Part shown: positions 471 through 52,988 of the stretch, piece by piece | Numbering within the stretch: position 1 is the first letter of the stretch | Layout: every line of letters starts with the position of its first letter | Virus record (IMG/VR): IMGVR_UViG_3300039109_000093 | Span: 1-55,310 of that record | Length of the DNA stretch: 55,310 bases | From: a virus | Lineage: Duplodnaviria; Caudoviricetes | Reading direction: 5' to 3' (one strand) | The notes under the pieces: model-generated | The model's database searches: none | Told to the model about the DNA's origin: nothing | Seen by the model: only the letters and a program-made list of their open reading frames with translations | Translations under genes and position numbers: made by a program

Positions 471-937
471 GGCTTCCTCGCCGCGTCCCACTCCCGCAGG
501 GCTTCCTCACGGTAGTGACCACGCGCTCGGGTCAACTTGCCGATCCACTCCTCGGTCTGGTCGTCGTTGATGGTGCGCTCATAGGCCAGGGCCTGCTCGA
601 CACTTCTACCCAGCTCCGTCTCGGCGTGCTGGGACTTCAGGACCTTCTGCTCACCCTTGGCCTCACCGATGAACTTGAACACCCAGATGGCGTTCTCGAT
701 GCGCTTGTGGTGCCGCTGGCAGTAGTCCACGCACAGCAGGAACTCCGAGTTGGTGATCTTGCGCTTGCGCATGACGAGGAAGAGCTTGTGCGACTCCAGT
801 CCCGACCACTTCCGGTAGGGCACCGGGTTCTCGGGATCCCAGTCTCCGTAGCCCAGCTTGCGACGGCCGAGTTCCCAGAGTTCGAGCTTGCCGAGCTCGT
901 CGGGCAACTTGCCGACAACGGACGTTGGCAGGGTCAT
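467..937 (-). CDS. hypothetical protein downstream of primase-helicase (possible replication accessory)
   Basis: Protein-like from MTLPTSVVGK (ATG at 937, GAGGGG upstream); overlaps the stop of 934..1149. Confidence 0.7.
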   Translation of the reverse strand: MTLPTSVVGKLPDELGKLELWELGRRKLGYGDWDPENPVPYRKWSGLESHKLFLVMRKRKITNSEFLLCVDYCQRHHKRIENAIWVFKFIGEAKGEQKVLKSQHAETELGRSVEQALAYERTINDDQTEEWIGKLTRARGHYREEALREWDAARKP

Positions 938-1149
938 CTCGACCCCTCCGGCAGCAACGTGGACCTGACCTTGGCCATGACATCGTCCACCGACGCGCAG
1001 ACCACGACCGTCCGGCCGCCCCGGAGATGGACCCGGGCCCGGGAGTCCGAACTGGCCCGCTCGACAGCGTCGATGGCGCTGACCCGCAGCCACGCCCCAC
1101 CGACCTGGACGAGGGCGTCCACGACAGTCTCCGTGCTGCTCCAGGTCAT
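934..1149 (-). CDS. small hypothetical protein
   Basis: 71-aa ORF coupled to the helicase stop; beta-rich composition. Confidence 0.55.
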   Translation of the reverse strand: MTWSSTETVVDALVQVGGAWLRVSAIDAVERASSDSRARVHLRGGRTVVVCASVDDVMAKVRSTLLPEGSR

Positions 1150-3041
1150 GCCAGCCTCAGCGCGGTCTGGGCGCCCTTGTAGGCAAGCTCCTGGCGGTAC
1201 CGTCTGACAGCCTCGTAGTCGTCGCCACGCCAGATGAGACGGTTCTCGTCCTGGACCACCTTGGCCGCAGGAGTACCGGCATCCACCATGACCAGGCTGG
1301 CCGCGCTGAACATGAGGTTGGTGGCCATCCCCTTGCCGCCCTTGCGGTTCTTCAAGACCTGGCAGCGCACGAGCCCCGAAGGTGCCTGCTCGTTGCCAAC
1401 GATGGCTTCGTCCGGTCGGAACAGACTGATCAGCAGATCGGCCGTCTCCTCGACGGCACCCGAGTCCCGAGCAGCATCAGCCTCAATGGGCTTGCCGTCC
1501 TGAGCCATCCGGTTCACCTGGTGCGGGGCGATCAGGGCGACTTCACCATCCTTGGCCTCCGCCTTCAGGGCCATCACCGCGTTGGTGGTCTTCTCGTAGG
1601 CACCCGAGCCCTTGCAGCCCTTGGCGTAGTACCCGAGGTAGTCCACCATCGCCAACTGCGGACGGAACCCCATCTCGTCCTCGTACTCGTCGCACAGAGT
1701 GGCAACGGCACCTTCGTGGAGGCGATTCTCGTCCACGATACGAAGCTTCGAGTACGCCTGGTCCACCTCGTGGTCCTCTGCCAACGGGTGTTGGAACCGG
1801 TACATCCGAGCGAGCCGCTCGTAGACCTGACCCGTGGTCATCTCCAAGGACACCATGAGAGTGGGCACCGTCGTGGTGTTGGCCGCGATGTTGAGCAGGA
1901 AGTTCGTCTTCCCAACCGAGGTTTTGGCCAGCGGAATCATGAGATCTCCCGGCTCCAATCCCGGTCGGAACCAGGAGTCCAGCTCCGCGAACCCCGTCTT
2001 GATCCCGGTGGACTCGGTCCTGCGCTTACGGAACTTGGCGCCCGCCTCGTCCATCGACCACAGCCGCTTGCCGGATGCAGTACCCAGCAACTCCATGACG
2101 TCGGACAGGACCTTGCCCCTGGTCGTCAGGTACTCGGTCCAGTCGCACTTGGGCAGGTCTGCTGGCAGCTCCACGATGCGGGCCTTGCTGCCCAGCAGTC
2201 CCTTGATCTTGATCGCGGCCTTCTTGCCGACGTCGTCTGGGTCCAGCCCGATGTAGACGCGCTTGGCCTCGGTGAACATGTTCTCGAACCCGGACGGGAG
2301 ACCGTTGGCGCCAGGGATGCCAACGACCGCTGTCGCCCGCACGCGCGGGTCCTTGCTGAGACTCAGGACCTGTTGCAGCACCAGGCAGTCCAGTTCTCCT
2401 TCGGTGATGATGACGTCGCTGGCACCGGCCATGGTGTCGGCGTTGAACAGCCGCACGCAGTCGCCGGACGGGGTGAAGTACTTCCCCTCAGGGTCCTTGC
2501 CGCGAAGCTGGATCACCGAGCCTCGCTGGAGGTACGGGATCGTGATCTTGTCGTGGAAGAAATCCCGTCCTGCCTCGGTGCGAACGCCCGCTGCGATCTG
2601 GTCGGCCACCGCGAGCTCACCCAGTGAGCTGCACAGACTCCAGTTCTTCGGGACGTAGCCGAGCTTGTAGTCCAGGATCGTCTGGAGGGTCAGCCCGCGT
2701 CCGACGAGGTAGTCCAGGATGCGCTGGTTGTTGAGGAGCATGTCGGCCGCCGTCTCGGTGGCCAGCTCCAGTACCCGGCGCCGCACGGTGGGGTCCTGCC
2801 CCGGCAGGTAGGCCGGGGAGTCGTCCTCGTCACCGAAGTGCCTGAGCAGTGTCCTGCGGTTACCAGAGGTGCCGCATTTCTTGCAGTCCCAGAGCCAGGA
2901 CTCGGTGTTCAGGTAAAGCTTCCCTTTCCCTTTGGAGTCATCGGAGCACCCCACGAAGCAGTGGGCAGTGACCTCAGCACCATTGGCCCGGAAGACCGCC
3001 ACACCCTTGCTGGTGAGGTAGGCGGATGCGTCTGTTTCCAT
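1146..3041 (-). CDS. DNA primase-helicase (Zn finger + TOPRIM + DnaB/SF4 helicase; T7 gp4/Twinkle-like)
   Basis: Zn-binding CxxxC...CKKCG; TOPRIM ITEGELD and DPDDVG; Walker A AKTSVGKT; SLEM; VDYL; QVNR; DSGAVEETAD; KNRKG. Confidence 0.93.
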   Translation of the reverse strand: METDASAYLTSKGVAVFRANGAEVTAHCFVGCSDDSKGKGKLYLNTESWLWDCKKCGTSGNRRTLLRHFGDEDDSPAYLPGQDPTVRRRVLELATETAADMLLNNQRILDYLVGRGLTLQTILDYKLGYVPKNWSLCSSLGELAVADQIAAGVRTEAGRDFFHDKITIPYLQRGSVIQLRGKDPEGKYFTPSGDCVRLFNADTMAGASDVIITEGELDCLVLQQVLSLSKDPRVRATAVVGIPGANGLPSGFENMFTEAKRVYIGLDPDDVGKKAAIKIKGLLGSKARIVELPADLPKCDWTEYLTTRGKVLSDVMELLGTASGKRLWSMDEAGAKFRKRRTESTGIKTGFAELDSWFRPGLEPGDLMIPLAKTSVGKTNFLLNIAANTTTVPTLMVSLEMTTGQVYERLARMYRFQHPLAEDHEVDQAYSKLRIVDENRLHEGAVATLCDEYEDEMGFRPQLAMVDYLGYYAKGCKGSGAYEKTTNAVMALKAEAKDGEVALIAPHQVNRMAQDGKPIEADAARDSGAVEETADLLISLFRPDEAIVGNEQAPSGLVRCQVLKNRKGGKGMATNLMFSAASLVMVDAGTPAAKVVQDENRLIWRGDDYEAVRRYRQELAYKGAQTALRLA

Positions 3042-3076
3042 GTCGCTCCCTAGCTGCTAATGAGTGTTGGCAAATG

Positions 3077-3120
3077 GATCAGCCGGGCCCCGGCTTCCCC
3101 TTCACGGGGCCCGGCTGATC
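3077..3120 (-). terminator. intrinsic terminator-like hairpin after SSB
   Basis: Perfect 16-bp inverted repeat GATCAGCCGGGCCCCG / CGGGGCCCGGCTGATC. Confidence 0.7.
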
Positions 3121-3122
3121 GG

Positions 3123-3587
3123 CTAAAACGGAACAGCCTCCGCGCGGGCCGACGACGGGAAGACATCGTCAACGGGGCAGCCGTAGTAGAAGCCGCCGTC
3201 CTTCTTCTGGCGTGGCTCCTCGTGGGTCACCGTGAACTTGCACGGCAGACCCAGCACCTGATCGGTGTCGAAGTCCTCACCGATCTCGATGGTGCGGCCC
3301 AGCAGCGTCTCGGCCCACGGACGGACGAGCGCGGCCCGCCCCTTGGGCTCCTCCAGGTTGTTGAGCTCCCCCTCGGTCTCACCCCAGGCCTTCATGCCCG
3401 CGTGCTCGCCCTCGGTGATGGAGAACTCCCAGACCCACAGGTCGAACGAGTAGGGGCGATCCGGCTTGCCGGGCTTCTTGCTGATGCCCTCAATGGTTCG
3501 CACGGTGACCGCGTCGAGCTTGCCGACGAACAGCTCGTCCTCGGGGAGCGGGTAGGGCGTCTCTTCTTTCATGGTTGCGCGGGGCAT
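3123..3587 (-). CDS. putative single-stranded DNA-binding protein (DUF669/OB-fold-like)
   Basis: Follows the Sak4-like ATPase; ends ...EAVPF like SSB tails; start MPRATM at 3587. Confidence 0.7.
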   Translation of the reverse strand: MPRATMKEETPYPLPEDELFVGKLDAVTVRTIEGISKKPGKPDRPYSFDLWVWEFSITEGEHAGMKAWGETEGELNNLEEPKGRAALVRPWAETLLGRTIEIGEDFDTDQVLGLPCKFTVTHEEPRQKKDGGFYYGCPVDDVFPSSARAEAVPF

Positions 3588-3588
3588 A

Positions 3589-5043
3589 TCAAGCACCTTT
3601 CTTATTGGCTGCCCGATAGGCAGCCCAGCAGGAACTACAGAGGGACGTGCGGGTCTTGAGCTGGGCGATCTCCACATGCATCTTGATCTCGTCACCACCC
3701 TGCTCGGTGGTCACGATTTCTTTGCCACAACCTGTGGCTAGTGGCTCGGCACCCTCGAACCCGGTGCCGCAGTAGACGACACCATCCGGGATACCGTCCA
3801 CGCCCGCCTCCGCTGCCTGCTCCACGGGCCCTGGAGCACCCATAGCCGGGTCATCGGCAGCAGGGGGGTCGGGTATCACCTCGCCACCGAGGGCGGCAGC
3901 GACCGCCTCCGGAGCCATCGGGGCCTCCGCAGGTAGATCGACAGGCTCAGGGACAGCCGCCCCAGGATCCGGGGCAGGGATCGTCGGCCTGGTAGCAGCC
4001 GGGACGTCGGTCCGGACGGGCTGAACAGCGGCCGCCGGAGCAGCCGGGCTCTGCGAGATGTCGTTGCTAACGGGCGTTGGCGTCTGGGAACTGGCGTCCA
4101 GCACCGACTCAGTGATCCGCGCCGAGTTGGCAGGCTCAGCCACGGGCGGCACAGCAGCCGCCTCGGGAGCCTTGGCTGCCTTCCTGGGCGCCGGGGCGGG
4201 CTGAACCACAGGTCCGCCCGCTCGTGGCGCCTGCGGGGGCGCAGCAGCCAGCACGGGGTCCGTCTCGTGCGTCTCCAGCACCTCGCTGGACGACATGCTG
4301 TCCAGGTGGCTGGTGAGAGTCAGGAACAAGTTGTCGAAGTCGTCAGTGGAGAAGGTGACCGGCGTCCACTTGTCGAGCTGACCCGAGCGATCCTTCAGGA
4401 TCGGCTTGAGCGGGCTGGTCTCCCACTCGATAGCCCGCTTGAGGGTACGCACACCGTCCACAGCCTCGTAGTAGGTGCCCATGTACCCAACCAGGTCGAA
4501 CTCGGCTGCGATCTGGTCCTTGAAATCACCCTTGAGCTTCACCCCGACCGTGGTGACCTTGTTGTCGTCGTCACCAGTCGTGATCTCCTTGGTGTGGACG
4601 TTGACCACGATGTTCATGGGCAACGCGTGAAGCTTCGAGACGAACTGCGTCATCTTCGCGTCCAGGTAGCCCCAGTCTGCCCAGCCCGAGAAGGACTCCT
4701 TCCTCTCAGAGTCCAGCCGCTCCTGGATGACAAGACGCTGGTAAGCGTCCAGGGTGTCCACCACGAAGGTCTGGTACCTGCGCTCCAGGATCGGCTTCTT
4801 GCACTCCAGTGCCAGGATCTCCAGCAGTTTGTCCATGTCCTTGGTGGACATGATCTCGCCGTAGGGCACCCCTCTGTCCGCAATGGACATCCGACCCTTC
4901 TCGCAGTCCGCGAAGATGGGCTTTGGCCAGTAAGAGGCTGAGCGTGTCTTTCCGGCACTCGGCTGACCGAGAATCAACGCCTTGACGTAAGCCTCCCCTC
5001 CGGCTAGGTAGTCCTCTATTCCGGTAGTCCGAACCACAAGCAT
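3589..5043 (-). CDS. sak4: Sak4-like AAA recombinase/annealase with Pro/Ala linker and C-terminal Cys motif
   Basis: Walker A GQPSAGKT, DCEKG, VVDTL, NVH, FDLVGY, KDRSG (AAA_24-like); lies between exonuclease and SSB. Confidence 0.8.
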   Translation of the reverse strand: MLVVRTTGIEDYLAGGEAYVKALILGQPSAGKTRSASYWPKPIFADCEKGRMSIADRGVPYGEIMSTKDMDKLLEILALECKKPILERRYQTFVVDTLDAYQRLVIQERLDSERKESFSGWADWGYLDAKMTQFVSKLHALPMNIVVNVHTKEITTGDDDNKVTTVGVKLKGDFKDQIAAEFDLVGYMGTYYEAVDGVRTLKRAIEWETSPLKPILKDRSGQLDKWTPVTFSTDDFDNLFLTLTSHLDSMSSSEVLETHETDPVLAAAPPQAPRAGGPVVQPAPAPRKAAKAPEAAAVPPVAEPANSARITESVLDASSQTPTPVSNDISQSPAAPAAAVQPVRTDVPAATRPTIPAPDPGAAVPEPVDLPAEAPMAPEAVAAALGGEVIPDPPAADDPAMGAPGPVEQAAEAGVDGIPDGVVYCGTGFEGAEPLATGCGKEIVTTEQGGDEIKMHVEIAQLKTRTSLCSSCWAAYRAANKKGA

Positions 5044-5453
5044 TACTGCACCTCTCTATCGGGTAGTTCCATGGCTGCTCTCTCCTTCTCTAGCTGGTCC
5101 TGGACCCGCCGGGTGCAGGCACGCTCCACAGTCAGGGCTCGCTGGAGCGAGCTGACCTGCTGCTCCAGGTCGCAACGGGCGTTGGCGACGATGTGCGCCC
5201 GCTCGCTAGCCAGCCTCACCTTGAGCTTCTCTGCCACGGCCTTGTTGACGACCGCCCTGGTGGCACTCGTCGTGACATGACTCAGTAGGTGCTTGGTGGC
5301 GAGGTCCGACAACGGAACCAGCGCATCCTCCACCTCGGGATCCTTGCGGCTCAGGCTGATGCTCATGCTCACGTCGGAGCCGTACTCGTTGACCCCAACC
5401 ACTACCTCGCAGGTCACCTGAGTCCCGCTCGCGCGGAGATTCTTGATGGTCAT
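5043..5453 (-). CDS. hypothetical coiled-coil protein
   Basis: 136-aa ORF coupled to both neighbours. Confidence 0.6.
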   Translation of the reverse strand: MTIKNLRASGTQVTCEVVVGVNEYGSDVSMSISLSRKDPEVEDALVPLSDLATKHLLSHVTTSATRAVVNKAVAEKLKVRLASERAHIVANARCDLEQQVSSLQRALTVERACTRRVQDQLEKERAAMELPDREVQ

Positions 5454-6325
5454 GGCCGTCCTGACTCCTCATCGGGGACCGGTACACCACCGCAGGTGTT
5501 GCGGTACTGGCACCAGGTACATGTCTCGCCAGTCAGGGTGAGTGGATAGATGTCAGCCTCGACGGCACGCACGTACTCCCGCAGAGCCACATGGAGCCGG
5601 TCGTAGTCCTGCTGCGAACGCCAGCCAGCATCCACGACCTTGTTCAAGCGGAGGTCGATCCACCTACCCCTGCGAGCCCAGTCCTTGGTGCGCTGGTACC
5701 ACTCGTCAGCCTCGTCACCCCAAGGGGTCCAGAACTCCGGCTGCAACGAGGCATAGGAGTAGACGGTCCACTGGGCGGCATACCTCAGGTAGGGCGGCTG
5801 CTTGCCCGTCTTAAAGTCCGACAGCGACAGGTACGGCTTCAGCTTGTACTTGCGGATCTCCAGCCGGTCAATGGTGCCGGTGAGGGTGTGCTGGCCCTGC
5901 TCACCGAGGTCGATGGGCACGTGGAACTGGAGCTCCAGTGCCAGCAGCTTGCCGTCGTCGGTGGACAGCAGGGCGAAGTAGTCATCCAGTGCTTGCAAGC
6001 CCTTGGAGCGCATCCCGCCGTAAGTATCCCGAGGCAGCCATTCGTCTATCCCGTAGGCCAACTCAGGGTGATGCGCCGCCATCTCTGGCATGTTGTCGGG
6101 GTTCCAGTAGTACGCGAAGGTGCTCTTGGCGATAGCCAGTGCCTGCGGGTTCCCGGCGTGGTGCTCGGTCTCCATGACCTGCACTGCGTGGTGCATTATC
6201 GTGCCAAAAACAGTCCGCGACAGATTGGACGGTCGAGGTCCAATCCCCTGCTTCGACAGGTCTTTCAAGTGTTTCTCCTGGGCGCAGCGCCCATAGGACG
6301 ACAGGTCCGACTGTCTGATGAGCAT
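5450..6325 (-). CDS. PD-(D/E)XK RecB/Cas4-like exonuclease
   Basis: FGTIMH, GTIDRL, DFKTG, QWTVY, C-terminal CxWCxYxxxC plus an N-terminal Cys (Fe-S type). Confidence 0.88.
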   Translation of the reverse strand: MLIRQSDLSSYGRCAQEKHLKDLSKQGIGPRPSNLSRTVFGTIMHHAVQVMETEHHAGNPQALAIAKSTFAYYWNPDNMPEMAAHHPELAYGIDEWLPRDTYGGMRSKGLQALDDYFALLSTDDGKLLALELQFHVPIDLGEQGQHTLTGTIDRLEIRKYKLKPYLSLSDFKTGKQPPYLRYAAQWTVYSYASLQPEFWTPWGDEADEWYQRTKDWARRGRWIDLRLNKVVDAGWRSQQDYDRLHVALREYVRAVEADIYPLTLTGETCTWCQYRNTCGGVPVPDEESGRP

Positions 6326-6540
6326 CAGTCGCGCCGGTCGCGCTCAAGGTCATACCGGGCCTTGAAAGCCTTGGTGATGCAGGAGTCCTTGCAGATCCAG
6401 AAGTCACCACCGTCACCACCGGCGTTGATCGTGACCCAGTTGACGGTAGTGCCCGTCGCAGGGTCGTCAGTCGCTACTAGCTGATAGGACCCGCACCCGT
6501 CGCAGATGTACTCACGGGCTTTGACTTCCTGACTTCCCAC
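6325..6540 (-). CDS. small Zn-ribbon protein
   Basis: CDGCG ... CKDSC motifs; AGAGGGG upstream. Confidence 0.65.
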   Translation of the reverse strand: MGSQEVKAREYICDGCGSYQLVATDDPATGTTVNWVTINAGGDGGDFWICKDSCITKAFKARYDLERDRRD

Positions 6541-6559
6541 GACCGCGCCCCTCTACCAA

Positions 6560-6800
6560 GGCGACGACCAACACGGAGCATCAGGCTCCTGTTGATCGCC
6601 GCCTTGCCCAGGGTGTCCCTGGGGCGGGCACGAGGTGGTTGCACCACTCCGCGTTGGTCGTCACCGACCAGTTCCGTTTGTCGCTCGCTGTTTCATGAGA
6701 CCAACAACCCACAGTCCGTACCGAGATCTCCCCGGTCACCATGGCGAGCGACGAAGATGAACCTAACGCGGGGGTCCGACAAAACAAGACCCTGGAGGAA
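6560..6800 (+). ncRNA. candidate structured non-coding RNA
   Basis: Several nested stems in a region with no credible ORF; G-U pairs favour the plus strand (see findings). Confidence 0.4.
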
Positions 6801-6841
6801 CATTCCGCTGACAACGCGCGTCCGCACCCTAAACGTGCAGG

Positions 6842-7072
6842 TCAGAGCGGCAATGAAAGTTGCTGGGCGCCACCGGCCCACTTGACGACCGGGTGCTCCC
6901 CGACGCGCCTCGGAAGCTGCACGATAAGAGTGCCCCCGATCCCGGGGACCTCGCTGGCCCGCAGTGCTGAGTCGAGGTGGTACCGACTCTCGTCCGACAG
7001 GTGGGAGAGCACTTCAGCCAACCGCAGCGCCATCGCAGCCACGTCGGGCTGGAGCGTCAACTCGGACAACAC
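6842..7072 (-). CDS. small protein ending in a beta-clamp-binding-like motif
   Basis: AAGGGAG RBS; C-terminus QQLSLPL. Confidence 0.6.
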   Translation of the reverse strand: MLSELTLQPDVAAMALRLAEVLSHLSDESRYHLDSALRASEVPGIGGTLIVQLPRRVGEHPVVKWAGGAQQLSLPL

Positions 7073-7169
7073 ACTCCCTTAGACGGCGGCGAGCCCTCCC
7101 AGGGGCGCAACGGAAAGGACCATATGCCCCAAGTGCTCGCCGCTCAAGAGAGACACGCCGCAAGATCGC

Positions 7170-7235
7170 TTATCCACAAGCAGATTGCCCGATCCACGCG
7201 AAGGACCGGGCAACCTGTGGAGAACCTGTGGAGAA
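7170..7235. promoter_or_regulatory. cluster of DnaA-box-like 9-mers
   Basis: TTATCCACA at 7170-7178; TGTGGAGAA (1 mismatch, reverse orientation) at 7216-7224 and 7227-7235. Confidence 0.55.
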
Positions 7236-7236
7236 C

Positions 7237-7590
7237 CTACGGAGCGGCATCGCCTTCGGGGGTCGTGACCGTGACGTTCCCGGTCGTGCCGTCCGGAAGC
7301 GTCGGCAAGGCGAGCTGCTCGGGGACGATGGTCACGCCCGGTGCCGAGTCGGCAGCCTGCGCCGTGAGTGCCGGGACGACCTGGCGGTAGGCCACCTCAG
7401 CGAACGGCGCGATGAAGGCCAGTAGGGTGCGCCAGTCGAACTTTCCACCGACCACCAGACTGAACACCGAGGGGACCGCCGACAACGCCGTGAGACGCAC
7501 GAAGCGCCACACCTGCGCGCTCAGGTGCTCGGCGCTGGTGCGCCAGGTCTTGGTCAGCGCACCGACAAGGTTGGGCTTGCTTCCGGTCAT
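7237..7590 (-). CDS. putative holin
   Basis: Directly after the endolysin; two hydrophobic segments separated by a GGKFDW loop. Confidence 0.6.
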   Translation of the reverse strand: MTGSKPNLVGALTKTWRTSAEHLSAQVWRFVRLTALSAVPSVFSLVVGGKFDWRTLLAFIAPFAEVAYRQVVPALTAQAADSAPGVTIVPEQLALPTLPDGTTGNVTVTTPEGDAAP

Positions 7591-7604
7591 GCCGCTCTCC
7601 CGCT

Positions 7605-8360
7605 TCAGTGGGTCACGGAGCGCAGGGCCCCGATGGTCTGAGGACCCACGATGCCGTCCACCGTGAGCTTGTGGTAGTGCTGGAACTGCTCGACGGCGTA
7701 CTTGGTGACTGGCCCGAACTGGCCATCCACGGGCACGCCGACAGCCCACTGGACGAACCGGACCTGGTTGCCGACCGCGCCCTGCTTGCAGTACGCGGCG
7801 TACTGGGCGTACGGGTTGGCCTTGACCGGGTTGCGAGGAGCTGTACCGGTGCTGGCAACGTGCGCTAGCAGCTTGGAGTAGTCCAGGATGCCCAGCACGG
7901 TGCCGTTGATGTTGCGGGTGCGCTGGTAGACGCCGCCGCCGTTCCGCTGACTGTCCGCGCTACCTGGCTGCTCTGAGGTGTTGCCCTCGATGGTCGAGTA
8001 GAACCCCGACCCCTTGGAGACGATCATGCCGATGTGGTCGGCCACGCCGTTCTCGTTCCACTGGAACAAGATCAAGTCGCCAGGGGAACCTAGCGACTTG
8101 TCGAGCCAGAGCCCGTGCTGCCTGGCGTAGGTGGTGATGGTCGGGCAGTAGTACGGGTTGGAGACCGGAAGGTCCGGCCCACCGGAGTGGATCTCCACCC
8201 AGCGCTGGAAGGCGGCACACCAGGGCTGGCCCTGAAGACTCGGGGCCAGCTCCGTCCAGTACTTCGTGATATTGCCGCTGTGCCCGTCCGAGCCGCCGCC
8301 CTCGACGTAGCCAAGCTGAGAGTGTGCAGTGTTGAGCCGCGTCTGAAGTGTTGCTGTCAT
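7605..8360 (-). CDS. endolysin: CHAP amidase + peptidoglycan-binding domain
   Basis: QPWCAAF, PGDLILF, DHIGM, TIEGNT (CHAP); two VDGxxGP repeats (PG_binding_1). Confidence 0.92.
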   Translation of the reverse strand: MTATLQTRLNTAHSQLGYVEGGGSDGHSGNITKYWTELAPSLQGQPWCAAFQRWVEIHSGGPDLPVSNPYYCPTITTYARQHGLWLDKSLGSPGDLILFQWNENGVADHIGMIVSKGSGFYSTIEGNTSEQPGSADSQRNGGGVYQRTRNINGTVLGILDYSKLLAHVASTGTAPRNPVKANPYAQYAAYCKQGAVGNQVRFVQWAVGVPVDGQFGPVTKYAVEQFQHYHKLTVDGIVGPQTIGALRSVTH

Positions 8361-8409
8361 GCCAGTCCCTCCGGTTCCGGTTCCCGTGACTGAAGGATCG
8401 ACCTGGCCG

Positions 8410-8631
8410 TCAGCCAATCCGAACTACGACCCTGCTAACGGGCGTTGGCAGGGTCGCGTCGTCCTTGCTCTTGAGCGCTCGGTCCAGTGCCTTCTTGGGC
8501 ACGATCCCAATCTCGAACATCAGCAGGACCAGGAAGACCCCGACCAACCCGGTGGACAGGATCGGCCCCAACAGACTCGTCAGGTCGGTGCCACCACCCG
8601 AAGCCAGGATCATGCCGGTCATAGCAGTCAT
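8410..8631 (-). CDS. small membrane protein of the lysis cassette (possibly truncated)
   Basis: One TM segment then a charged stretch; the 3' part runs through a 30-bp palindrome. Confidence 0.6.
   Translation of the reverse strand: MTAMTGMILASGGGTDLTSLLGPILSTGLVGVFLVLLMFEIGIVPKKALDRALKSKDDATLPTPVSRVVVRIG
8427..8456. repeat. most complete copy of the dispersed palindrome
   Basis: CGACCCTGCTAACG-GG-CGTTGGCAGGGTCG; 14-bp arms with one mismatch. Confidence 0.85.
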
Positions 8632-8689
8632 GTCGGCTTCCAGCCCCCAAGTTCCAAGCGGACGGCAACGAGCGTTGGCCTCCGAGAAG

Positions 8690-10581: not shown

Positions 10582-10592
10582 GTCATCACCCG

Positions 10593-10721
10593 TCAGGTGC
10601 CATTGAGGACGGCGACGACCGTGCCGACGTAGTTGGTCGGGGACGCCGTGCCTGCTGGAAGGGTGAGCGTCCGGGCGTTCGACGTGAAAGCACCGGCCGT
10701 CGATCCTCGTAGCGTCGTCAT
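10593..10721 (-). pseudogene. truncated tail-protein stub
   Basis: MTTLRGSTAG...TLTLPAGT resembles the start of a virion protein but stops after 42 aa. Confidence 0.4.
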
Positions 10722-10734
10722 TTGATCACCGCAA

Positions 10735-11604: not shown

Positions 11605-12011
11605 GTCGTCTCCATGAGGTACTCGGGCAGGTCCTTGATGGCGATCCCCGCGAAGGTGAAGTAGTGCTCGAGGTCGTAGCTCGGGTCGCCGGTGATGACG
11701 AAGAAGACGTACGCCCCCACGTAGAAGCCCCGACTGTCGATCTGCCACTTCCACACCGCACCACTGGAGGTCGGGAAGTAGCCGTCGATCAGCGTGTCCC
11801 CGTCCAGGCTGAAGCAGTAGGCCACGGAGGGCTTCTCCACGAAGGTGCAGTCGAAGGTCACCACCGTGGTGTGCTGGACCTCCCCGACGCCATGCGAGGT
11901 GATGGTGGCGAACGACTCGGCCTGCCGGGCGGTGTTCTCCCGGGTCTGCTCCAGCCGACCACGGTGCGCCTCAGCAGCCTGCACCAGCGGGTTCACGGAG
12001 AAGGTGCTCAT
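11601..12011 (-). CDS. minor tail protein
   Basis: 136-aa ORF in the tail-tip cluster. Confidence 0.6.
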   Translation of the reverse strand: MSTFSVNPLVQAAEAHRGRLEQTRENTARQAESFATITSHGVGEVQHTTVVTFDCTFVEKPSVAYCFSLDGDTLIDGYFPTSSGAVWKWQIDSRGFYVGAYVFFVITGDPSYDLEHYFTFAGIAIKDLPEYLMETT

Positions 12012-12012
12012 G

Positions 12013-15547: not shown

Positions 15548-15555
15548 GGCTCAGG

Positions 15556-45389: not shown

Positions 45390-45941
45390 TCATGATGGCT
45401 TCTTTCCGGACAGGCGCTTCATGACACCGATGGACAGGTTCGGTCGTTCCGTCATGATCTCCCCGAGAACCTGCTGGACGTACAGGACCCGCCACTCCAG
45501 GAAGAAGGCCGGGTTGATCCGGCACCCGACAGCGATCTTGTCGAGCACGTAGAGATCGAGCTGCATGTGGGAGTAGTCGCCACGCAGCAGCTCGGACAGA
45601 CGCCGGTCGCTGATCCCGGTCTTGATGCCCATGGCCCGTATGCTGCGGTCGCCCTGCAACTCCTTGAAGGCCACCGGAAATGGGTCCACGCTGAACTGTG
45701 GGGTGATCATCTTCCACAGGTCTGCCAGGTTGGCGTTCCTTGGCATCGTACGGCGGCCGTCGAGACGCTGCCCGGTCTCTCGCTTGCGGTCGTCGTACTT
45801 CGTCACCACGTAGATGTCACCCAAGATCTGGTGCATCACGTCCGGACGCCGATCAAAGAAATCGACCCATTCCTCGACGCCATGCTTGACGCTGGGATAC
45901 GTCTCGCGGGCGTTCTGCCAGTCCGACACCTTCTGGACCAT
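45390..45941 (-). CDS. XRE-like HTH DNA-binding protein
   Basis: SIRAMGIKTGISDRRLSELLRG...LDKIAVGCRINPAFF. Confidence 0.75.
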   Translation of the reverse strand: MVQKVSDWQNARETYPSVKHGVEEWVDFFDRRPDVMHQILGDIYVVTKYDDRKRETGQRLDGRRTMPRNANLADLWKMITPQFSVDPFPVAFKELQGDRSIRAMGIKTGISDRRLSELLRGDYSHMQLDLYVLDKIAVGCRINPAFFLEWRVLYVQQVLGEIMTERPNLSIGVMKRLSGKKPS

Positions 45942-45943: not shown

Positions 45944-46597
45944 CTACAGCTCCCGCAGCCAGGCGCGTTGATTCTGGCGCCAGGCGGTGTCGATGGCATC
46001 GAACTCGGGGCGCATGACCTCACGGACCCAGTCCAGGATGTCGTCCGGCTTCTCCAAGCCCAGCTTGAACCGTTCCACCTCATCGGACCTGTCGTAGGCA
46101 CCCACCATGGAGAAGAGCTGGTTGATCAGCGACAGCGCCTTGTGGACCTGCTTCTCGCGGTGGATGCCGTGCTCCCGTGCCCGGGCCTTGAGATTGACGA
46201 TGTAGGACCCCACGGAGGTGAAGGCGTCCTTCTCGCGCTGCGCCTTGGTCAAGCCCAGGTCGTTCTTGATGGTCGAGATCAGCGGCGAGTTCTCCTTGAT
46301 GACCTTCCGGCAGTCCGCTTCCTCGCCGGGCCCCAGGATCTCCTTGTAGTAGTTCTTCCCCGAGGCCAGCCAGCAGGTGGCCCGGTAGACCAGCAGCTCC
46401 ATGAACAGCATCCGGTCCAGGTCCTGGAGATCAGAGACGGCCGAGAAGGTGTTCTCCGTCGTGTACTTCTTCTGCTGCTCGTTGTAGAAGTCCCGCTCGG
46501 CCGTGCCCTGGACGATGATCTCCTGTCCGGAGAGCATCTTGACGGTGAACCCACGCGGGCCTGCCGAGCTGGACTGGAGCGAGCTGGTGATGGTCAC
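45944..46597 (-). CDS. putative terminase small subunit
   Basis: Helical; DLGLTKAQR motif; upstream of TerL. Confidence 0.62.
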   Translation of the reverse strand: MTITSSLQSSSAGPRGFTVKMLSGQEIIVQGTAERDFYNEQQKKYTTENTFSAVSDLQDLDRMLFMELLVYRATCWLASGKNYYKEILGPGEEADCRKVIKENSPLISTIKNDLGLTKAQREKDAFTSVGSYIVNLKARAREHGIHREKQVHKALSLINQLFSMVGAYDRSDEVERFKLGLEKPDDILDWVREVMRPEFDAIDTAWRQNQRAWLREL

Positions 46598-46664
46598 GGC
46601 CCGACTGTAGACGACAACGCCCGTTGCCGCCCCAGCATCCGGGGCAGATGTTGCTGGCGTGTCG

Positions 46665-46738
46665 TGCCTTCCGAGAGACTCGAACTCTCAACCTGCCCGC
46701 TTTAGAGGCGGGCCGCTCTGCCATTGAGCTAGAAAGGC
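46665..46738 (-). tRNA. tRNA with CUA anticodon (amber suppressor-like)
   Basis: GCCTTTC/GGAAGGC acceptor; GCTC/GAGC D arm; GCCCGC-CTCTAAA-GCGGGC anticodon arm; GAGAG-TTCGAGT-CTCTC T arm; no encoded CCA. Confidence 0.85.
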
Positions 46739-46949: not shown

Positions 46950-47404
46950 AGCGCCACCACCCTCAAGACGAACCGGGCACTCCCCCTGGTAGGCAAGGTC
47001 TTCTGGGCTGGGTGAATGAACGGCCAAGTGCGCTCGACGTATGTCTCGTCGTCATCTGGAATGACTTTGGCATCCATCAAACCGTCGCAACAATATTTTA
47101 TTGCATATGCAAGGTTATCTTGATCGCGGGTACGAACAGTCGCTGGAATGTAGTGCAGCTCCACCCTGATGCGTCGACAAGGCGGAATCCGTTGAGCCCT
47201 AGCAAGTACATGCACCGCATCCCGCCAAGCCTTGGCCTTCCTGGCTTTTACGGCCCAGTGCTCCCTGTCGTTGAGGTTGGGAATCTCAGCCACGGTCTGA
47301 AACGGCAGATGCAGGCTCCACTCGCCCTGTAGCTGTCGGACTACCGGCACGGCCGCATCAGGCCGGACCGCAGCCGGGACGTCGACACGGAGGCCCTTCA
47401 CCAC
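46946..47404 (-). CDS. RusA-like Holliday junction resolvase
   Basis: PNLN...RDQDNL...KYCCDGL...VIPDD catalytic pattern. Confidence 0.82.
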   Translation of the reverse strand: MVKGLRVDVPAAVRPDAAVPVVRQLQGEWSLHLPFQTVAEIPNLNDREHWAVKARKAKAWRDAVHVLARAQRIPPCRRIRVELHYIPATVRTRDQDNLAYAIKYCCDGLMDAKVIPDDDETYVERTWPFIHPAQKTLPTRGSARFVLRVVAL

Positions 47405-48006
47405 TTGGAAATCGTCATAGGTGCCTGGATTCTCGCGATGGTGCCCTGAAGTATCTTCATGTCGAACTTCGCGCCCGTCACCACAATGTTGGGCCGCTTT
47501 GCGATTTGCTCGTCCATCCGAGCGGCATCGAGAACCTTCTGGACAGCCTGTTGGTCTAACCAGTATTCGGCCTCCTCTACGCTGGTGAACCGAGGCTGCG
47601 GCTCAGGGATCGGATTGTGCTCCTCCAGCCAGGCATCGGCTTCCTCCTGGGTCCGGAAGGTGGGCACCACCAGTGGCACGGCCTCGATGTACCGCCAGGG
47701 CACGTTGACCGGGAGGTTGTATGGCGACCCGTCCATCTCCTCCAGGTCCACCGTGCAGAAGCCGTTCTCGACGTAGGAGACCTTGCCGGTGCGACCGGCA
47801 AGGGTCGGGTGCGGATCCGAGATGACAACGCGCATTCTCACCTGCACTGCGGACCTGATGACGTCGAGATGAAGCGACCGGGACTTGTCCGCGTGGAAGG
47901 CATCGGCAGTCTTGATCCGGTCACCGCCGAAGTGTTCCTCGTGGTACAGGGACTTACCGCAGAGGCAGTTGCCACCATGGGATTCCTGGAAATAGTGCGG
48001 GTTCAT
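47398..48006 (-). CDS. hypothetical protein
   Basis: KOW-like GRTGKV; two F.(T/S).EEA..WL repeats. Confidence 0.65.
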   Translation of the reverse strand: MNPHYFQESHGGNCLCGKSLYHEEHFGGDRIKTADAFHADKSRSLHLDVIRSAVQVRMRVVISDPHPTLAGRTGKVSYVENGFCTVDLEEMDGSPYNLPVNVPWRYIEAVPLVVPTFRTQEEADAWLEEHNPIPEPQPRFTSVEEAEYWLDQQAVQKVLDAARMDEQIAKRPNIVVTGAKFDMKILQGTIARIQAPMTISKW

Positions 48007-48554
48007 AACGAGTCTTGACCGGCCCTAACGGACGTTCCGAACGGCACGAGCGGCTGGTCGCCCTTGACGTACAGCGGGTGACGCGGGTGGCCGTCCTTCG
48101 TCGTGCCGAGGCACCGCCAGTTCACATCGGGCACCAGGGCCATGACCTGAGCCACGCGCTCAGGCTTCGCGTTCGCGCCCCACGCTGCGACGACCGGGCG
48201 CTCGACGCAGGAGACCCCAGTGAGCATCCGCAGCAACTTGGTGTCGTTCTGCGGCCCCACGGCATCAACGCAGGTCAGGAGGGCTTTCGGGTCGGTCGCC
48301 CGGTAGGCGTAGAGGTTCACGACGTGGATGCCCGCGTAGCCCTCCCTCCGAGCGAAGCCCATGCACCGCCTGATCGTCGGGTCGTCGATGTCGGCGTCGG
48401 CCGTGGACGGGTTGAGCATCACGAAGGGCAGCAGCGCGCCGCCGGCCCAGCGGCGTGCCAGCGAGTAGCGGTAGGTCTCGCAGTTGCTGATGACCGCGTA
48501 CTTCTCGATCGCCCGCAGAGGACCGCTGTCGGTTAGTTTCTGCTTATCCGACAT
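48003..48554 (-). CDS. DUF1643 family protein
   Basis: YRYSLARRW...MLNPSTAD...DDPTIRRC...VNLYAYRATDP...AWG...PRHPLY. Confidence 0.9.
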   Translation of the reverse strand: MSDKQKLTDSGPLRAIEKYAVISNCETYRYSLARRWAGGALLPFVMLNPSTADADIDDPTIRRCMGFARREGYAGIHVVNLYAYRATDPKALLTCVDAVGPQNDTKLLRMLTGVSCVERPVVAAWGANAKPERVAQVMALVPDVNWRCLGTTKDGHPRHPLYVKGDQPLVPFGTSVRAGQDSL

Positions 48555-48979: not shown

Positions 48980-49176
48980 TGGCTCGGGTCGTTCAGGTAG
49001 GCGACGTAGGCGGCGGCACATCGCTCGCCGCAGACGGTCTCGCTCGATGAGGCTTCGAGCGGGTAGAGCGTTCCGCAGTTCGCGCAGGTGCGGAACTCGC
49101 CGCCTTCCTCCACGATCTTCTCGGCCAGCGCAGCCTTCATGGCAGCCAGTGAGTACACCCGCCCCTTGCTGGTCAT
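48973..49176 (-). CDS. small Zn-finger protein
   Basis: MTSKGRVY...CANCG...CGERC; ATGA coupling to the MTase. Confidence 0.6.
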   Translation of the reverse strand: MTSKGRVYSLAAMKAALAEKIVEEGGEFRTCANCGTLYPLEASSSETVCGERCAAAYVAYLNDPSQW

Positions 49177-49949
49177 GCGAGACTCCCCAGGCGGCGCGCG
49201 GCCATGTCCGCGTAGGTGGGGTTCACGTCCCCTACGACGTACTGCCGACCGCACTCTGCGGCGGCAGCCGCCACGGTGCCAGAACCAACGAACGGGTCCA
49301 CGACAAGCCCTCCGGGAGGACAGGTCAACTCAATAAGCCACCGGCAGAACTCCTGGCCCTTTATGGTCGGGTGCCGAAGGTCGTTCGCCTTCTGAAACGC
49401 CGAGTTCTCTGATGAATAGGGGAAGTCCGTTCCGAACCAGCACGACGGGAACCGCTGCTTCCACTCCGGTACGGGCTGACGGCCCTTGTTCGGGATCGTC
49501 CCCGCTCGCTTGTTACGGAGCAGCGTCACCGGCTGGAAACGGAACCGCCCCTTCGTGGCGAAGATCAGCCAGTCGGAGTTCGGCTGGAATGTGCAGTCCA
49601 GGTTGGTCGCACCTGCGGGACGCTTCTGGCCGATGACGGGCTCGCGCATGGTGAACCCTGCCGCCTCTACGTCGCGGTAGTGATCGGGATAGACGGACCA
49701 GCCGGTGAACATCAGGACGGCGCTGCCGGGTCGCAGGACGCGGTACGCCTCCCGCGCCAGGAGCGCATAGGAGAAGGGCGCGGCGTCACCGTCGAGCATG
49801 TCGTGGGCGTCGTGCGTGTAGGGGTTCTGGTAGCCGATGCCATAGGGGGGATCGGTCAGGATCAAGTCCACCGACTCGTCGGGCAGATCGGCAAGCAACG
49901 CGGCGTAGTCCGCTGATAGCACCCGCCCCGACGTTGGGTCCGTGATCAT
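49173..49949 (-). CDS. N6/N4 DNA methyltransferase (beta class)
   Basis: LILTDPPYG (motif IV) before HPTIK and VVDPFVGSGT (motif I). Confidence 0.9.
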   Translation of the reverse strand: MITDPTSGRVLSADYAALLADLPDESVDLILTDPPYGIGYQNPYTHDAHDMLDGDAAPFSYALLAREAYRVLRPGSAVLMFTGWSVYPDHYRDVEAAGFTMREPVIGQKRPAGATNLDCTFQPNSDWLIFATKGRFRFQPVTLLRNKRAGTIPNKGRQPVPEWKQRFPSCWFGTDFPYSSENSAFQKANDLRHPTIKGQEFCRWLIELTCPPGGLVVDPFVGSGTVAAAAAECGRQYVVGDVNPTYADMAARRLGSLA

Positions 49950-50410
49950 GCCGGGTGCTCCTTGCAGTCGTTGTCGTGGAACGGGCAGGGACAGGTGTGG
50001 TCGCCGTCTGCGTCGGGCGTCTTGCCGCAGTGGTGACAGGCCAGAAGCGCATAGGCGCGGTAGGCGCGGGCGTCCGCGTGGAGACGCTCGGCCTTCCTCC
50101 GCAAGTCGCCTGCCAAGACCTCGGCGGCGTCTCCCCTTCGATCTTGCGCCTCGGCCCAGGTGAGGCACCAGTCGGCTGTCCACGTCTGCGGGCCAGTCGT
50201 CATCCGCCACAGCATGGGGTGCCGAGCCATCACGACCGCGCCAAGGTGAGGGTGGAACTCGCTGATCTCGGTTCGACAGGTGGGGCAGGTGAACATCTCG
50301 ACGTGCCAACGCCAGCAGCGAGTGCGGTGTCCGCAGAGGTCACAGGGACGCAGCGTAAGCAACCGAACGATGCCCTTGGCGATGACTCGGTAAGGACCGC
50401 TAGCGGTCAC
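49946..50410 (-). CDS. Cys-rich hypothetical protein
   Basis: Three CxxC-type motifs; coupled overlaps. Confidence 0.55.
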   Translation of the reverse strand: MTASGPYRVIAKGIVRLLTLRPCDLCGHRTRCWRWHVEMFTCPTCRTEISEFHPHLGAVVMARHPMLWRMTTGPQTWTADWCLTWAEAQDRRGDAAEVLAGDLRRKAERLHADARAYRAYALLACHHCGKTPDADGDHTCPCPFHDNDCKEHPA

Positions 50411-51504: not shown

Positions 51505-51753
51505 TCAGGACGGGACGCGACGGCCATCAGGCACCCTCAGGGATCGGTACTTGCCGGGCTCGGTGGTGACCAGCCCTTGCTTCGCCAGGGCCACCAGGTG
51601 GTACCGGACCGTGGATCGGCTCAACGGCCCGACGTGATCCGCAATCTCGGTGAGCGAGGGTCCGTAACCGTACTGCCTGATGTAGTCCTTGATGTACGTG
51701 AAGATCTCCCGACGCCTGTCGAGGCCCTGCTGGACGAGCTCCGTGCTGGCCAT
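51505..51753 (-). CDS. stand-alone LexA-type winged-HTH DNA-binding domain (no protease domain)
   Basis: EIFTYIKDYIRQYGYGPSLTEIADHVG..SRSTVRYHL..L.KQGL...PGKYRSL. Confidence 0.85.
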   Translation of the reverse strand: MASTELVQQGLDRRREIFTYIKDYIRQYGYGPSLTEIADHVGPLSRSTVRYHLVALAKQGLVTTEPGKYRSLRVPDGRRVPS

Positions 51754-51814
51754 TTCCTGCTCCTGACTACTTTGTACTATGACACTACGGGTTGGCGGCC
51801 CTCGCCGCAAGTGA

Positions 51815-52237
51815 TTACGTCAGTGGCGCAATCTTTTCCAGGCAGGACGCAACCTGCTCGCGTTCCATCTCGGTGACCCCGGCCAACCGGCACTTGACGC
51901 AGACCGGTAGTTCGCTGGTGTTGGAGCCTCGGGCCGTCCAGGAGGAGCCGCCGCACAGGTAGCGGACCATCATCAGGACCGGCTGGCCACGGTCCCAGGC
52001 AATCCAGCCGAACCTGGGCATGTGAGCGTACTTGGCGCTCTTGGTGGGAATGTAGAACCGGGACTTCAGGGCGGCTGGCGTCACCCGGTACCCGCGCATC
52101 ATGACGCTCACCAGTGGACGCGGCATCCGGCCCCACCGCATGTGCTGCATCTGGGCGTAGTGGACCGCGTTGATGGCCCGGTAGGCCTCGACGGGCGCCG
52201 CACACCGGTTGCCGTAGCTCTGGCCGTGGTAGCTCAC
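51815..52237 (-). CDS. hypothetical protein with a C-terminal Cys motif
   Basis: H...YLCGG...CVKC. Confidence 0.6.
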   Translation of the reverse strand: MSYHGQSYGNRCAAPVEAYRAINAVHYAQMQHMRWGRMPRPLVSVMMRGYRVTPAALKSRFYIPTKSAKYAHMPRFGWIAWDRGQPVLMMVRYLCGGSSWTARGSNTSELPVCVKCRLAGVTEMEREQVASCLEKIAPLT

Positions 52238-52461
52238 CAGCCGCGTCCCATCGCCAGGGCGTCTGTCCGTAGCTGCTCAGCCAGGCCCTGGTAGTCCTGC
52301 TCACCTGGACCCACCTCACCGAACAGGCGCTGGTCGTTGAGCACGCCCTCACACCAGTCACGCAGCAACCCTCCGACCAGCGCGGCCCGGTTGATCGTGG
52401 CGATCTGGCGACCCTGGAGCCAGCGGGTGGGAGTCGCCGTGATCACCTCGTAGGCCGTCAT
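52234..52461 (-). CDS. small hypothetical protein
   Basis: From MTAYEVI; ATGA coupling. Confidence 0.55.
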   Translation of the reverse strand: MTAYEVITATPTRWLQGRQIATINRAALVGGLLRDWCEGVLNDQRLFGEVGPGEQDYQGLAEQLRTDALAMGRGW

Positions 52462-52988
52462 GGCAGCACCTCCACCAGCAGCCGCCTGCGGCCCCAGCGG
52501 GCGCACTGGGCCCCGGAGCTCATGAACAGGTCCAAGCTGGAGCAGCAGCCGATTCTGTCGGTCACGGTGACCACACCCACGCCCGGCACCCTCAGCCTGG
52601 TCCCCAGCGGCCACCTGTTGCCCGCTGCGGCCCCCACGTAGGGCCACTGGCCGTTCGCCATCCGGTTCCCGGTACTGGTGTAGGCCGTCACTGACAGCCA
52701 CATCATGTTGGTTAGTTGGTTACCAACTGCTTCGGTGGAGATCGGCCGGATGGCTGGCTGGGTGGATCGGGACCGGCTGGCCCGGAGGTCTCGGGCATGT
52801 AACAGCAACCTGACAATAACCTGTAAGTGATCTTCGTCGACCTGTGAGCGTGTTTGAGCGCGGATTTGACCCTGCGAACGGGCGTTAGCAACGACAAGTG
52901 ACCTCGGTTTCCCGATCTCTACGGGCTGGCTGGAGGGAGCGATGAGGCAGAGGGCGGCCAGGAAGCTGCTGAACAGCGTGCGCCTCAA
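52458..52988 (-). CDS. exported 3D-domain (RlpA/MltA-like) cell-wall-active protein
   Basis: Signal-like RRTLFSSFLAALCLIA; VTAY...ANG...PLGT.L.VPG.G..TVTDR...LDLFM...WGRR. Confidence 0.75.
   Translation of the reverse strand: MRRTLFSSFLAALCLIAPSSQPVEIGKPRSLVVANARSQGQIRAQTRSQVDEDHLQVIVRLLLHARDLRASRSRSTQPAIRPISTEAVGNQLTNMMWLSVTAYTSTGNRMANGQWPYVGAAAGNRWPLGTRLRVPGVGVVTVTDRIGCCSSLDLFMSSGAQCARWGRRRLLVEVLP

Follow-up and report, generated by a model that had tools for sequence, protein, structure and literature searches.

IMGVR_UViG_3300039109_000093 is a phage genome of 55,310 bp (Caudoviricetes; the entire virus record, referred to here as the window). It carries many copies of a short palindrome, built on the core AACG-N2-CGTT and dispersed between and within its genes, and the same core recurs throughout a lineage of related phages. 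Judged from its sequence, the palindrome is most probably an array of sites for a DNA-binding protein. We propose, at a probability of roughly 0.45, that a phage-encoded sequence-specific dimer, most likely an XRE-family protein, reads these sites, which would serve as operators at a few places and in a density-based role across the whole genome. We infer binding, the identity of the binder and the effect of binding from comparative and structural data.

The 18-bp site TGCYAACGNNCGTTRGCA occurs twice in the window without mismatch (at 8433 and 37879), compared with 0.00 occurrences expected. When up to three mismatches were allowed, 22 matches were found; 100 dinucleotide shuffles gave 0.59 on average and never more than 3. 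The roughly 20 dispersed copies reported in a preliminary description of this sequence are thus real. In an unbiased count of all gapped palindromes with 4+4 and 5+5 arms, AACG-N2-CGTT ranked first, with 16 copies where 0.6 were expected. The same element was returned by a generic repeat finder, whose two largest families (D1 and D2) consist of the palindrome with a GRGTCA flank. An iterated weight matrix lists 31 sites in the window, the weakest of which are uncertain because such a matrix can drift. All eight copies previously named as strong have at most one mismatch. Ten of the 13 named as looser lie within three mismatches, and the other three (11586, 38544 and 46612) were recovered only by the weight matrix.

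Codon-preserving controls, which the preliminary description had suggested, were run with 200 shuffles each on our own gene calls. Ten intragenic cores were observed in the window, compared with a mean of 0.30 (maximum 2) after synonymous-codon shuffling and 0.33 (maximum 2) after codon permutation. In relatives, synonymous shuffling gave the same picture: 30 cores against a mean of 1.26 in G002, 34 against 1.6 in G011, and 36 against 0.84 in G006 (G and L numbers are our handles for related contigs and loci). The shuffles thus remove the intragenic cores, indicating that the motif is explained neither by amino-acid sequence nor by codon usage. The frame xxA-ACG-NNC-GTT (x-Thr-x-Val) is used by 160 of 219 intragenic cores. 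This common frame accounts for the similar peptides noticed earlier in unrelated proteins, which we also find: LPTPV at 8433, 25359 and 39767, TPTPVS at 4065, and LPTSV at 913. As to the gene names given with these peptides, Sak4 has a family match and the others have none.

Each half-site follows approximately the profile G-n-Y-G-n-S-A-A-C-G, and two half-sites face each other across two unread central bases. The central dinucleotide varies. The preference for GG on the plus strand, described before, is present in 7 of the 16 window cores; it was not seen in relatives and is therefore probably a coding-frame effect. Of the matrix hits, 18 have one orientation and 13 the other, even though almost all genes (71 listed proteins) are on the minus strand. 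At 913, 8433, 22530, 37879, 39767 and 52873 an outer arm, TGACYC … GRGTCA, is also present, often on one side only, and lengthens the palindrome to 30 bp. Relatives show this arm weakly or not at all; a tetramer, or another protein, might use it as an additional half-site.

Relatives were collected by a search with the 606-residue head protein (16 IMG/VR loci, 44-66% identity) and by alignment of the XRE protein (35 loci, all with the same head module). As the preliminary description had anticipated, the motif is conserved: the core is the top gapped palindrome in G001-G004, L003, L005, L014 and L017, and ranks first in 21 of the 35 loci found through the XRE alignment. Copy numbers are 17 in G001, 43 in 86 kb of G002, 19 in G003, 23 in G004, and 46 in 53 kb of G006. 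The last of these came to light in a scan of viral contigs with TGNCAACGNNCGTTGNCA, in which the matches listed were mostly single chance ones. The core also ranks first in G010-G013, with 13, 49 (G011, 79.5 kb), 20 and 14 copies, and second in G014, with 9 copies at a GC content of 49%. Motif-bearing contigs span 49% to 69% GC. Their flanks differ by lineage (TGCY in the window, TAC in G007, GTCtc in G010, cGtg in G012); AACG..CGTT is constant.

Only 0-1 copies of the core are present in G005 (83 kb, a complete genome that has terminal repeats), in the mangrove-soil phage GX15bay, and in loci L195, L196 and L198-L202, and we count it as absent there; the most distant two of the complete relatives do not carry it. 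G005 (L036-L040) contains three perfect copies of a different 19-bp palindrome (7+5+7), at 8924, 19118 and 29483, and no array. One of them lies near the junction of a divergent XRE gene and the large terminase (TerL) gene, and an imperfect copy related to it is found at the equivalent junction in L199. This palindrome may be a low-copy counterpart of the array.

The positions of the sites are described below in relation to these genes:

Positions 45944 to 46597, minus strand: p217, a conserved gene that precedes the XRE gene and whose GTG start is abutted by a palindrome; small terminase (TerS) by position only, without a family match.
Positions 45390 to 45941, minus strand: the XRE candidate, 183 residues, with a helix-turn-helix (HTH) at about residues 96-145 followed by C-terminal helices.
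Positions 42683 to 45370, minus strand: the TerL candidate, 895 residues, with an inserted LAGLIDADG-type domain; family match.
Positions 37187 to 37795: the scaffold candidate, a positional label.

In the window and its relatives, by rough gene calls of our own, 87 of 244 cores (36%) are intergenic, compared with about 12% of the DNA, and about 64% are intragenic. Among more distant members the intergenic share is 9 of 13 cores in G010, 15 of 49 in G011, 6 of 20 in G012 and 5 of 14 in G013. Several intergenic sites hold their place. One precedes the p217 start codon by 9-18 nt in the window, G001, G002 and G004, and lies further upstream in G007 and L005; p217 heads the p217-XRE-TerL run, and a site stands at the start of the first gene of this operon in six genomes. 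Another, often as a pair 38 nt apart, is found 83-121 nt before the scaffold candidate in the window, G002, G003, G007, G008 and L005. A third is directly 3' of the 480-residue tail gene in the window, G003 and G008. Paired sites in the early region lie upstream of the operon of a LexA-like gene in G001, G002 and G003. The intergenic copies named in the preliminary description are confirmed: one precedes the primase-helicase ATG, by 13 nt, and others lie before the scaffold, tail-chaperone and TerS candidates.

The intragenic sites behave differently. For 15 window sites that could be aligned, a core at the homologous place was found in no relative in ten cases and in one or two genomes in the other five. 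Since intragenic sites use the cheapest frame and are quickly replaced, what seems to be under selection is how many sites the whole genome carries, or how densely, and not their location. The sites are as follows:

Positions 8433 to 8450: a perfect 18-bp site within a 30-bp palindrome (GACCC-site-GGGTC), in the small gene 8410-8631, 23 nt from its stop; encodes LPTPVSR.
Positions 37879 to 37896: an 18-bp site without mismatch, between genes and some 90 nt upstream of the scaffold candidate; position kept in five relatives.
Positions 22530 to 22547: one mismatch, intergenic, 18 nt past the stop of the 480-residue tail gene and upstream of the chaperone candidate; G003 and G008 have a site in the same position.
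Positions 33622 to 33639: one mismatch, intergenic, with the top matrix score; borders a site-free low-GC block.
Positions 52873 to 52890: one mismatch, in a 283-nt intergenic region upstream of a three-gene run (52701 to 51505) that ends in the LexA-like gene.
Positions 46612 to 46629: an exact core, intergenic, 14 nt upstream of the p217 GTG with no Shine-Dalgarno sequence between; kept in five relatives.
Positions 3055 to 3072: two mismatches, intergenic, flanked by a hairpin and by the primase-helicase ATG (13 nt away).
Positions 6809 to 6826: three mismatches, intergenic.
Positions 8663 to 8680: an exact core with poor flanks (three mismatches), between genes 8690-9646 and 8410-8631.
Positions 4065 to 4082: one mismatch, in the Sak4-like gene; encodes TPTPVSN.
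Positions 39767 to 39784: one mismatch, in the gene of a 488-residue head-module protein; encodes LPTPVRT; a homologous exact core in G009 and G013 only.
Positions 42453 to 42470: one mismatch, in the 5' part of a small gene between TerL and the 606-residue gene.
Positions 25359 to 25376: two mismatches, an exact core, in the tail-module gene 25222-25767; encodes LPTPVVA; a homologous exact core in G004.
Positions 913 to 930: two mismatches, an exact core with a GGGTCA flank, in gene 467-1093; encodes LPTSVVG.
Positions 17609 to 17626: two mismatches, in the tape-measure gene; encodes LPTSITN.
Positions 1779 to 1796: a weak site with two mismatches, off-frame, in the primase-helicase gene.
Positions 5170 to 5187: an exact core, three mismatches overall, in gene 5043-5453 in a minority reading frame.
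Positions 7853 to 7870: two mismatches, in the endolysin gene.
Positions 11586 to 11603: a looser copy, by weight matrix only, in gene 10735-11754.
Positions 12786 to 12803: an exact core in the 759-residue tail gene; a homologous exact core in G002.
Positions 14138 to 14155: an exact core with poor flanks, close to the 5' end of the 759-residue tail gene.
Positions 15172 to 15189: three mismatches, in gene 14630-15547.
Positions 19448 to 19465: two mismatches, in the tape-measure gene.
Positions 38544 to 38561: a looser copy, by weight matrix only, in gene 38389-38979.
Positions 47823 to 47840: by weight matrix only, with CATT for CGTT in the core, in gene 47398-48006.
Positions 48023 to 48040: an exact core with unrelated flanks, in the DUF1643 gene.

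The preliminary description had named two HTH proteins as candidate binders, and both are indeed HTH proteins. For the XRE candidate, 5 of 21 homologues carry Pfam PF01381 or PF13560. Its structural model has a predicted local distance difference test score (pLDDT) of 80.8, and the top Foldseek matches are mainly XRE-type HTH proteins (C.AhdI, ClgR, DdrO, lambda cI), at E-values of only 0.03-0.2 because the HTH makes up one third of the protein. The gene is located between p217 and TerL in 31 of 33 loci, namely those that reach p217, and immediately before TerL in the other two. In tblastn searches it was the sole window gene detected in every motif-bearing contig spanning its position and undetected in G005 and GX15bay; p217 and TerL, unlike the XRE gene, were both detected in these two motif-less genomes. 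The motif-less clade has only very divergent XRE copies, with different residues in helices 2 and 3.

Modelling supports a symmetric dimer of the XRE candidate. The homodimer model scored 0.65, compared with 0.34 for the best of three controls, with an interface formed by residues 145-178, right after the HTH. Of 30 proteins whose solved structures are pairs, 20 reach a score of 0.65; of 23 solved as single chains, 1 does. Across runs at least 39% of contacts agreed and the partner pLDDT was at least 63. An operator of an XRE-family repressor would be a palindrome of about 14-18 bp, with the cognate HTH dimer encoded nearby and a site at its own operon; observed here are an 18-bp palindrome, an XRE HTH predicted to dimerize, and a site abutting the protein's own operon in six genomes. 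We suggest that the phage-encoded HTH dimer, with the XRE protein as first candidate, would recognize the palindrome with one half-site per subunit. Fixed intergenic sites may act as operators that time or limit transcription, including that of the XRE gene itself. The intragenic array, apparently selected for density, may build roadblocks or keep the regulator concentrated on phage DNA.

Several observations weigh against this assignment. A divergent XRE family is encoded in the motif-less G005 (hidden Markov model E 4.9e-28) and GX15bay (6.3e-14), so that a genome may have the family and still lack the motif. Because the motif-less genomes form one outgroup clade, essentially a single evolutionary event underlies the association between XRE protein and motif. 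At the start of the presumed recognition helix, motif-bearing genomes differ from one another (SD, DF, DH, AH, HH, DQ and others) while the core is invariant, which a simple readout model would not predict, and the flank variants do not follow the variants of XRE helix 3. For the window protein itself, Pfam gave no hit at E<=0.01 and Foldseek no match at E<=0.001, and a position between terminase genes is unusual for a transcription factor. Finally, the spacing of sites is only mildly more even than random: P was <0.001 in G011 and nominally 0.04 in G004 and G009, and not significant in the other 10 of 13 contigs. No clear pattern of covariation was seen between flanks and the recognition helix of either candidate, with too few independent lineages.

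The second candidate is encoded in the early region:

Positions 51505 to 51810, minus strand: the LexA-like gene, a LexA N-terminal DNA-binding domain alone, 82 residues from the ATG at 51753.

The gene has no room for a protease/dimerization domain. In this alternative, which we consider unlikely, the early protein binds the palindrome as a non-cleavable LexA-like repressor and regulates itself through the sites upstream of its own operon. The domain is recognized by family match: LexA_DNA_bind scored 54 bits (cut-off 23.7, E 1.4e-14), and solved LexA repressors align with the protein over their residues 5-77 (E 4e-8 to 9e-7). A homologue of 75-93 residues is encoded in all nine near-clade contigs that cover the early region and is absent from G005 and GX15bay. 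One or two intergenic sites precede its operon in the window, G001, G002 and G003, and a subclade with the recognition helix RTA(V/I)VWHL has TAC instead of TGC flanks. The LexA (SOS) box of Gram-positive bacteria and Actinobacteria is GAAC-N4-GTTC, and AAC-N4-GTT is contained in every core, in the same register about the dyad. However, in 28 of 32 window half-sites a C or T stands where the LexA box has G ahead of AAC; that G is present in 21 of 34 half-sites of G001, compared with 4 of 32 in the window. The phage protein lacks the cleavable domain through which LexA dimerizes, and tens of sites per 55 kb differ from the few promoters marked by LexA boxes. Its recognition helix is no less variable than that of the XRE protein. 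Co-occurrence with the motif, to which the preliminary description had looked, holds for the XRE gene in every spanning contig (divergent copies being present in motif-less genomes) and fails for the LexA-like gene in five motif-bearing contigs, G010-G014, where PF01726 has no match (G011 carries 49 cores in 79.5 kb, at an estimated completeness of 81%). As these contigs are incomplete, the gene could sit off-contig.

Partition, packaging or protection of the genome, raised in the preliminary description, are conceivable further roles. The gene of the favoured binder is part of the packaging module, so that the XRE protein might serve in packaging or in self-marking. The array would then be a self-marking device of a lytic phage, by which the XRE dimer tells phage DNA from host DNA, an idea that we regard as rather doubtful. 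The protein might direct terminase or protective factors to phage DNA, or it might keep host nucleases or RNA polymerase off phage DNA late in infection.

It is more doubtful still that a host protein, either a PaaR-type TetR-family regulator or LexA, reads the sites and is recruited or titrated by replicating phage DNA. If a conserved host protein were the reader, the core could stay invariant while the phage HTH helices vary, as observed, and the half-site GAACG of G001, G012 and L014 includes the core of the LexA box. CNAACGNNCGTTNG is given as the operator of the Thermus TetR-family regulator PaaR in the relevant part of that study (PMC6651687); the 10-bp core AACGNNCGTT is identical, and there, too, an HTH homodimer reads the operator. 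A AAACgNNcGTTT motif is reported at lipid catabolism genes of Shewanella (PMC2532739, in the part covering that motif). In the searched literature no description of the present motif was found, and the core string appeared in full text only in these two papers and a review. However, the motif is kept across contigs of 49% to 69% GC, probably from different hosts, and the phages of an outgroup clade (G005, L195-L201) lack it although they are otherwise alike and close in GC. With G at position -6 in 4 of 32 half-sites, the window sites are poor canonical LexA boxes. The targets that the PaaR study describes, in the part concerned, are two promoters and no genome-wide array (PMC6651687), and no TetR_N domain was found among the window proteins.

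A function at the RNA level, with the palindromes acting as hairpins that serve as U-less terminators, processing sites or stabilizers, is very unlikely. Some intergenic copies do lie right after highly expressed genes, for instance 18 nt past the major tail gene, a few copies extend to 30 bp, and a stem-loop after the major tail gene is recorded in the account of Cluster O mycobacteriophages (PMC4351075, in the part on its repeats). Against this, about 64% of copies are inside genes, two unpaired bases at the centre would not suffice for a loop without opening of the inner pair, and no U-tract follows the intergenic window copies inspected. On the sense strand, flank pairs are G.U in 269 cases and A.C in 309, and complementarity peaks only at the conserved bases; as G.U pairs do not exceed A.C pairs, it is the bases that are conserved and not the pairing. 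Together with the loss of the motif on shuffling and its conservation across the lineage, this supports the earlier view of a protein-recognition site maintained at the DNA level.

Dispersed promoters are the least probable reading, with the half-site TTGRCA as a -35 element: TTGNCA is indeed contained in CGTTGACA, CGTTGGCA and CGTTGTCA, and stoperators, some associated with promoters in D29, resemble -35 elements according to the pertinent part of the D29 literature (PMC12266134), but the element is symmetric, and a search for the -10 hexamer TANNNT at a distance of 16-19 bp past TTGNCA, as in canonical sigma-70/SigA promoters, gave 0 of 121 intergenic cores for both directions and 1 and 2 of 218 intragenic cores, against a background of 189 in 60000. 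The N6/N4 DNA methylase of the window (49173-50309) was ruled out as the reader of the motif, since it has no homologue in any relative and cannot account for a lineage-wide motif.

Among known dispersed-site systems, the closest precedent by analogy is the 17-bp palindrome of Cluster O mycobacteriophages, TGTTCGG-NNN-CCGAACA, described with 34 copies, about one third of them intragenic, and no assigned function (PMC4351075, here and below as given in its treatment of the repeat). Both are short inverted repeats with an unread centre, present in tens of copies through a siphophage genome, between and inside genes. Both lack a meaningful orientation, and the Cluster O phages are likewise described without an integrase, as not obviously temperate, and with a repeat of unexplained function. 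Their hosts are actinobacterial, and the WhiB proteins of G011 hint at the same here. The two repeats differ in sequence and in spacing (7+3+7 there, 8+2+8 here). About two thirds of the Cluster O copies are intergenic or near gene starts and their arms are invariant, whereas about two thirds of the copies here are intragenic, frame-biased, degenerate and subject to fast turnover. The core also spans a deeper and more diverse lineage than Cluster O, with head proteins down to about 40-60% identity, and two candidate binder genes can be named, unlike in Cluster O.

Cluster A stoperators are bound by a phage HTH protein. Like the sites described here, they are numerous regulator sites dispersed through the genome and also found within genes, as set out in the relevant parts of two reports (PMC4351075, PMC12266134). 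In contrast to the unoriented 18-bp palindrome, they are 13 bp long, asymmetric and oriented with transcription, and they serve the immunity repressor of temperate phages. No integrase gene and no partition gene was found among the 71 window proteins or the 132 proteins of G011, and no prophage relative of the 606-residue head protein or of the XRE protein among 185,579 species with one genome each, a set whose incompleteness means that absence is no proof. Prophage silencing in the strict stoperator manner, which had been considered in the preliminary description, is therefore unlikely, the more so for a symmetric and unoriented site. The conserved inverted repeats of phiC31 are bound by the c repressor. 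SPbeta has SPBRE sites, which according to the pertinent section of one report are bound by MrpR (PMC10516654). Both resemble the present case in having repeated (palindromic) operators at many phage loci read by one phage repressor, but their sites are mostly intergenic and control lysogeny of temperate phages. Searches of the literature on dispersed palindromes in phages returned nothing on this lineage.

The window has a GC content of 64%. Its record was matched by four DNA runs from soil metagenomes, all of one study, with no RNA runs listed. A megablast search of positions 1-20000 against phage records gave no match, and GX15bay was the sole record to match most of either query protein, at 38-40% identity, so that these searches gave no sign of kinship with Cluster O phages. 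Other features of the window are:

Positions 1146 to 3041: a DnaG/DnaB-type primase-helicase, by family match.
Positions 3589 to 5043: the Sak4-like protein, by family match.
Positions 16482 to 21248: the tape-measure protein, by family match.
Positions 49173 to 50309: the N6/N4 DNA methylase, by family match.
Also by family match: a PD-(D/E)XK exonuclease, an endolysin with a PG_binding_1 domain, two endonuclease VII genes and one RusA-like resolvase gene.
Positions 26445 to 33621: a site-free block of 7.2 kb in which GC falls to 55-61%, with low GC content at third codon positions.

At E<=1, PHROGs assigned a function to none of p217, the 606-, 488- and 202-residue head-module proteins and the tail genes, so that 'TerS', 'portal', 'scaffold' and 'tail terminator' are labels by position only. 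The 606-residue 'portal' protein matches a GX15bay coding sequence annotated 'PhoH' and not the one annotated 'portal'. The block at 26445-33621 contains genes with almost no homologues in relatives, an HNH gene, and the sole long plus-strand gene (27179-28729), with tail-spike/YadA-like repeats. It looks recently acquired, and the absence of sites from it fits a gradual build-up of sites in resident DNA.

Further observations concern the packaging module and its surroundings. The TerL candidate has a LAGLIDADG/homing-endonuclease-like domain at about residues 614-682, which suggests an intein or an inserted endonuclease. The TerL segments homologous in relatives comprise about 400 residues, and the GX15bay match spans coding sequences annotated as terminase, hypothetical and 'PhoH'. 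The slot upstream of p217 is occupied by non-homologous junction resolvases, RusA-like in the window, G001, G002 and L003, RuvC-like in G007, and VRR-NUC in L005, L006 and G011. Just upstream of the p217/XRE/TerL run lies a tRNA gene with anticodon CUA (an amber suppressor, labelled tRNA-Pyl by ARAGORN; 46664-46738, minus strand), and about 100 nt further upstream an uncalled tRNA-like 3' end (…GGTTCGACTCC…CACCA). TAG stops end 9 of the 71 listed genes, among them p217 and the tail-chaperone candidate. Read-through of the chaperone gene by the phage tRNA(CUA) was considered and rejected, as it would gain only eight residues. Among the relatives, G011 (L203:269-991, L205:207-1020) encodes its own sigma-70-family factor, two WhiB-like proteins and a MoxR/VWA pair, as well as an ATP-dependent DNA ligase and a C5 cytosine methylase; the two WhiB proteins and several actinobacterial DUFs indicate actinobacterial hosts.

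Dispersed short repeats are already known in actinobacteriophages, with a mechanism only for the stoperators of temperate Cluster A phages; those of Cluster O have been unexplained since 2015. The lineage described here adds a comparative series of dozens of uncultured relatives, from 49% to 69% GC and with 9 to 49 copies per contig, together with a motif-less sister clade. It also shows an evolutionary signature, in which operon-proximal sites are fixed and intragenic sites appear to be selected for density with rapid turnover. As two candidate binders can be named, the question is testable with two small proteins. If the XRE protein of the packaging module binds the array, a sequence-specific protein would have a genome-wide role in lytic development beyond classical repression. 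If the array marks phage DNA as self, it would be a viral counterpart of SlmA-SBS, Noc-NBS and MatP-matS, and could explain the Cluster O repeats as well.

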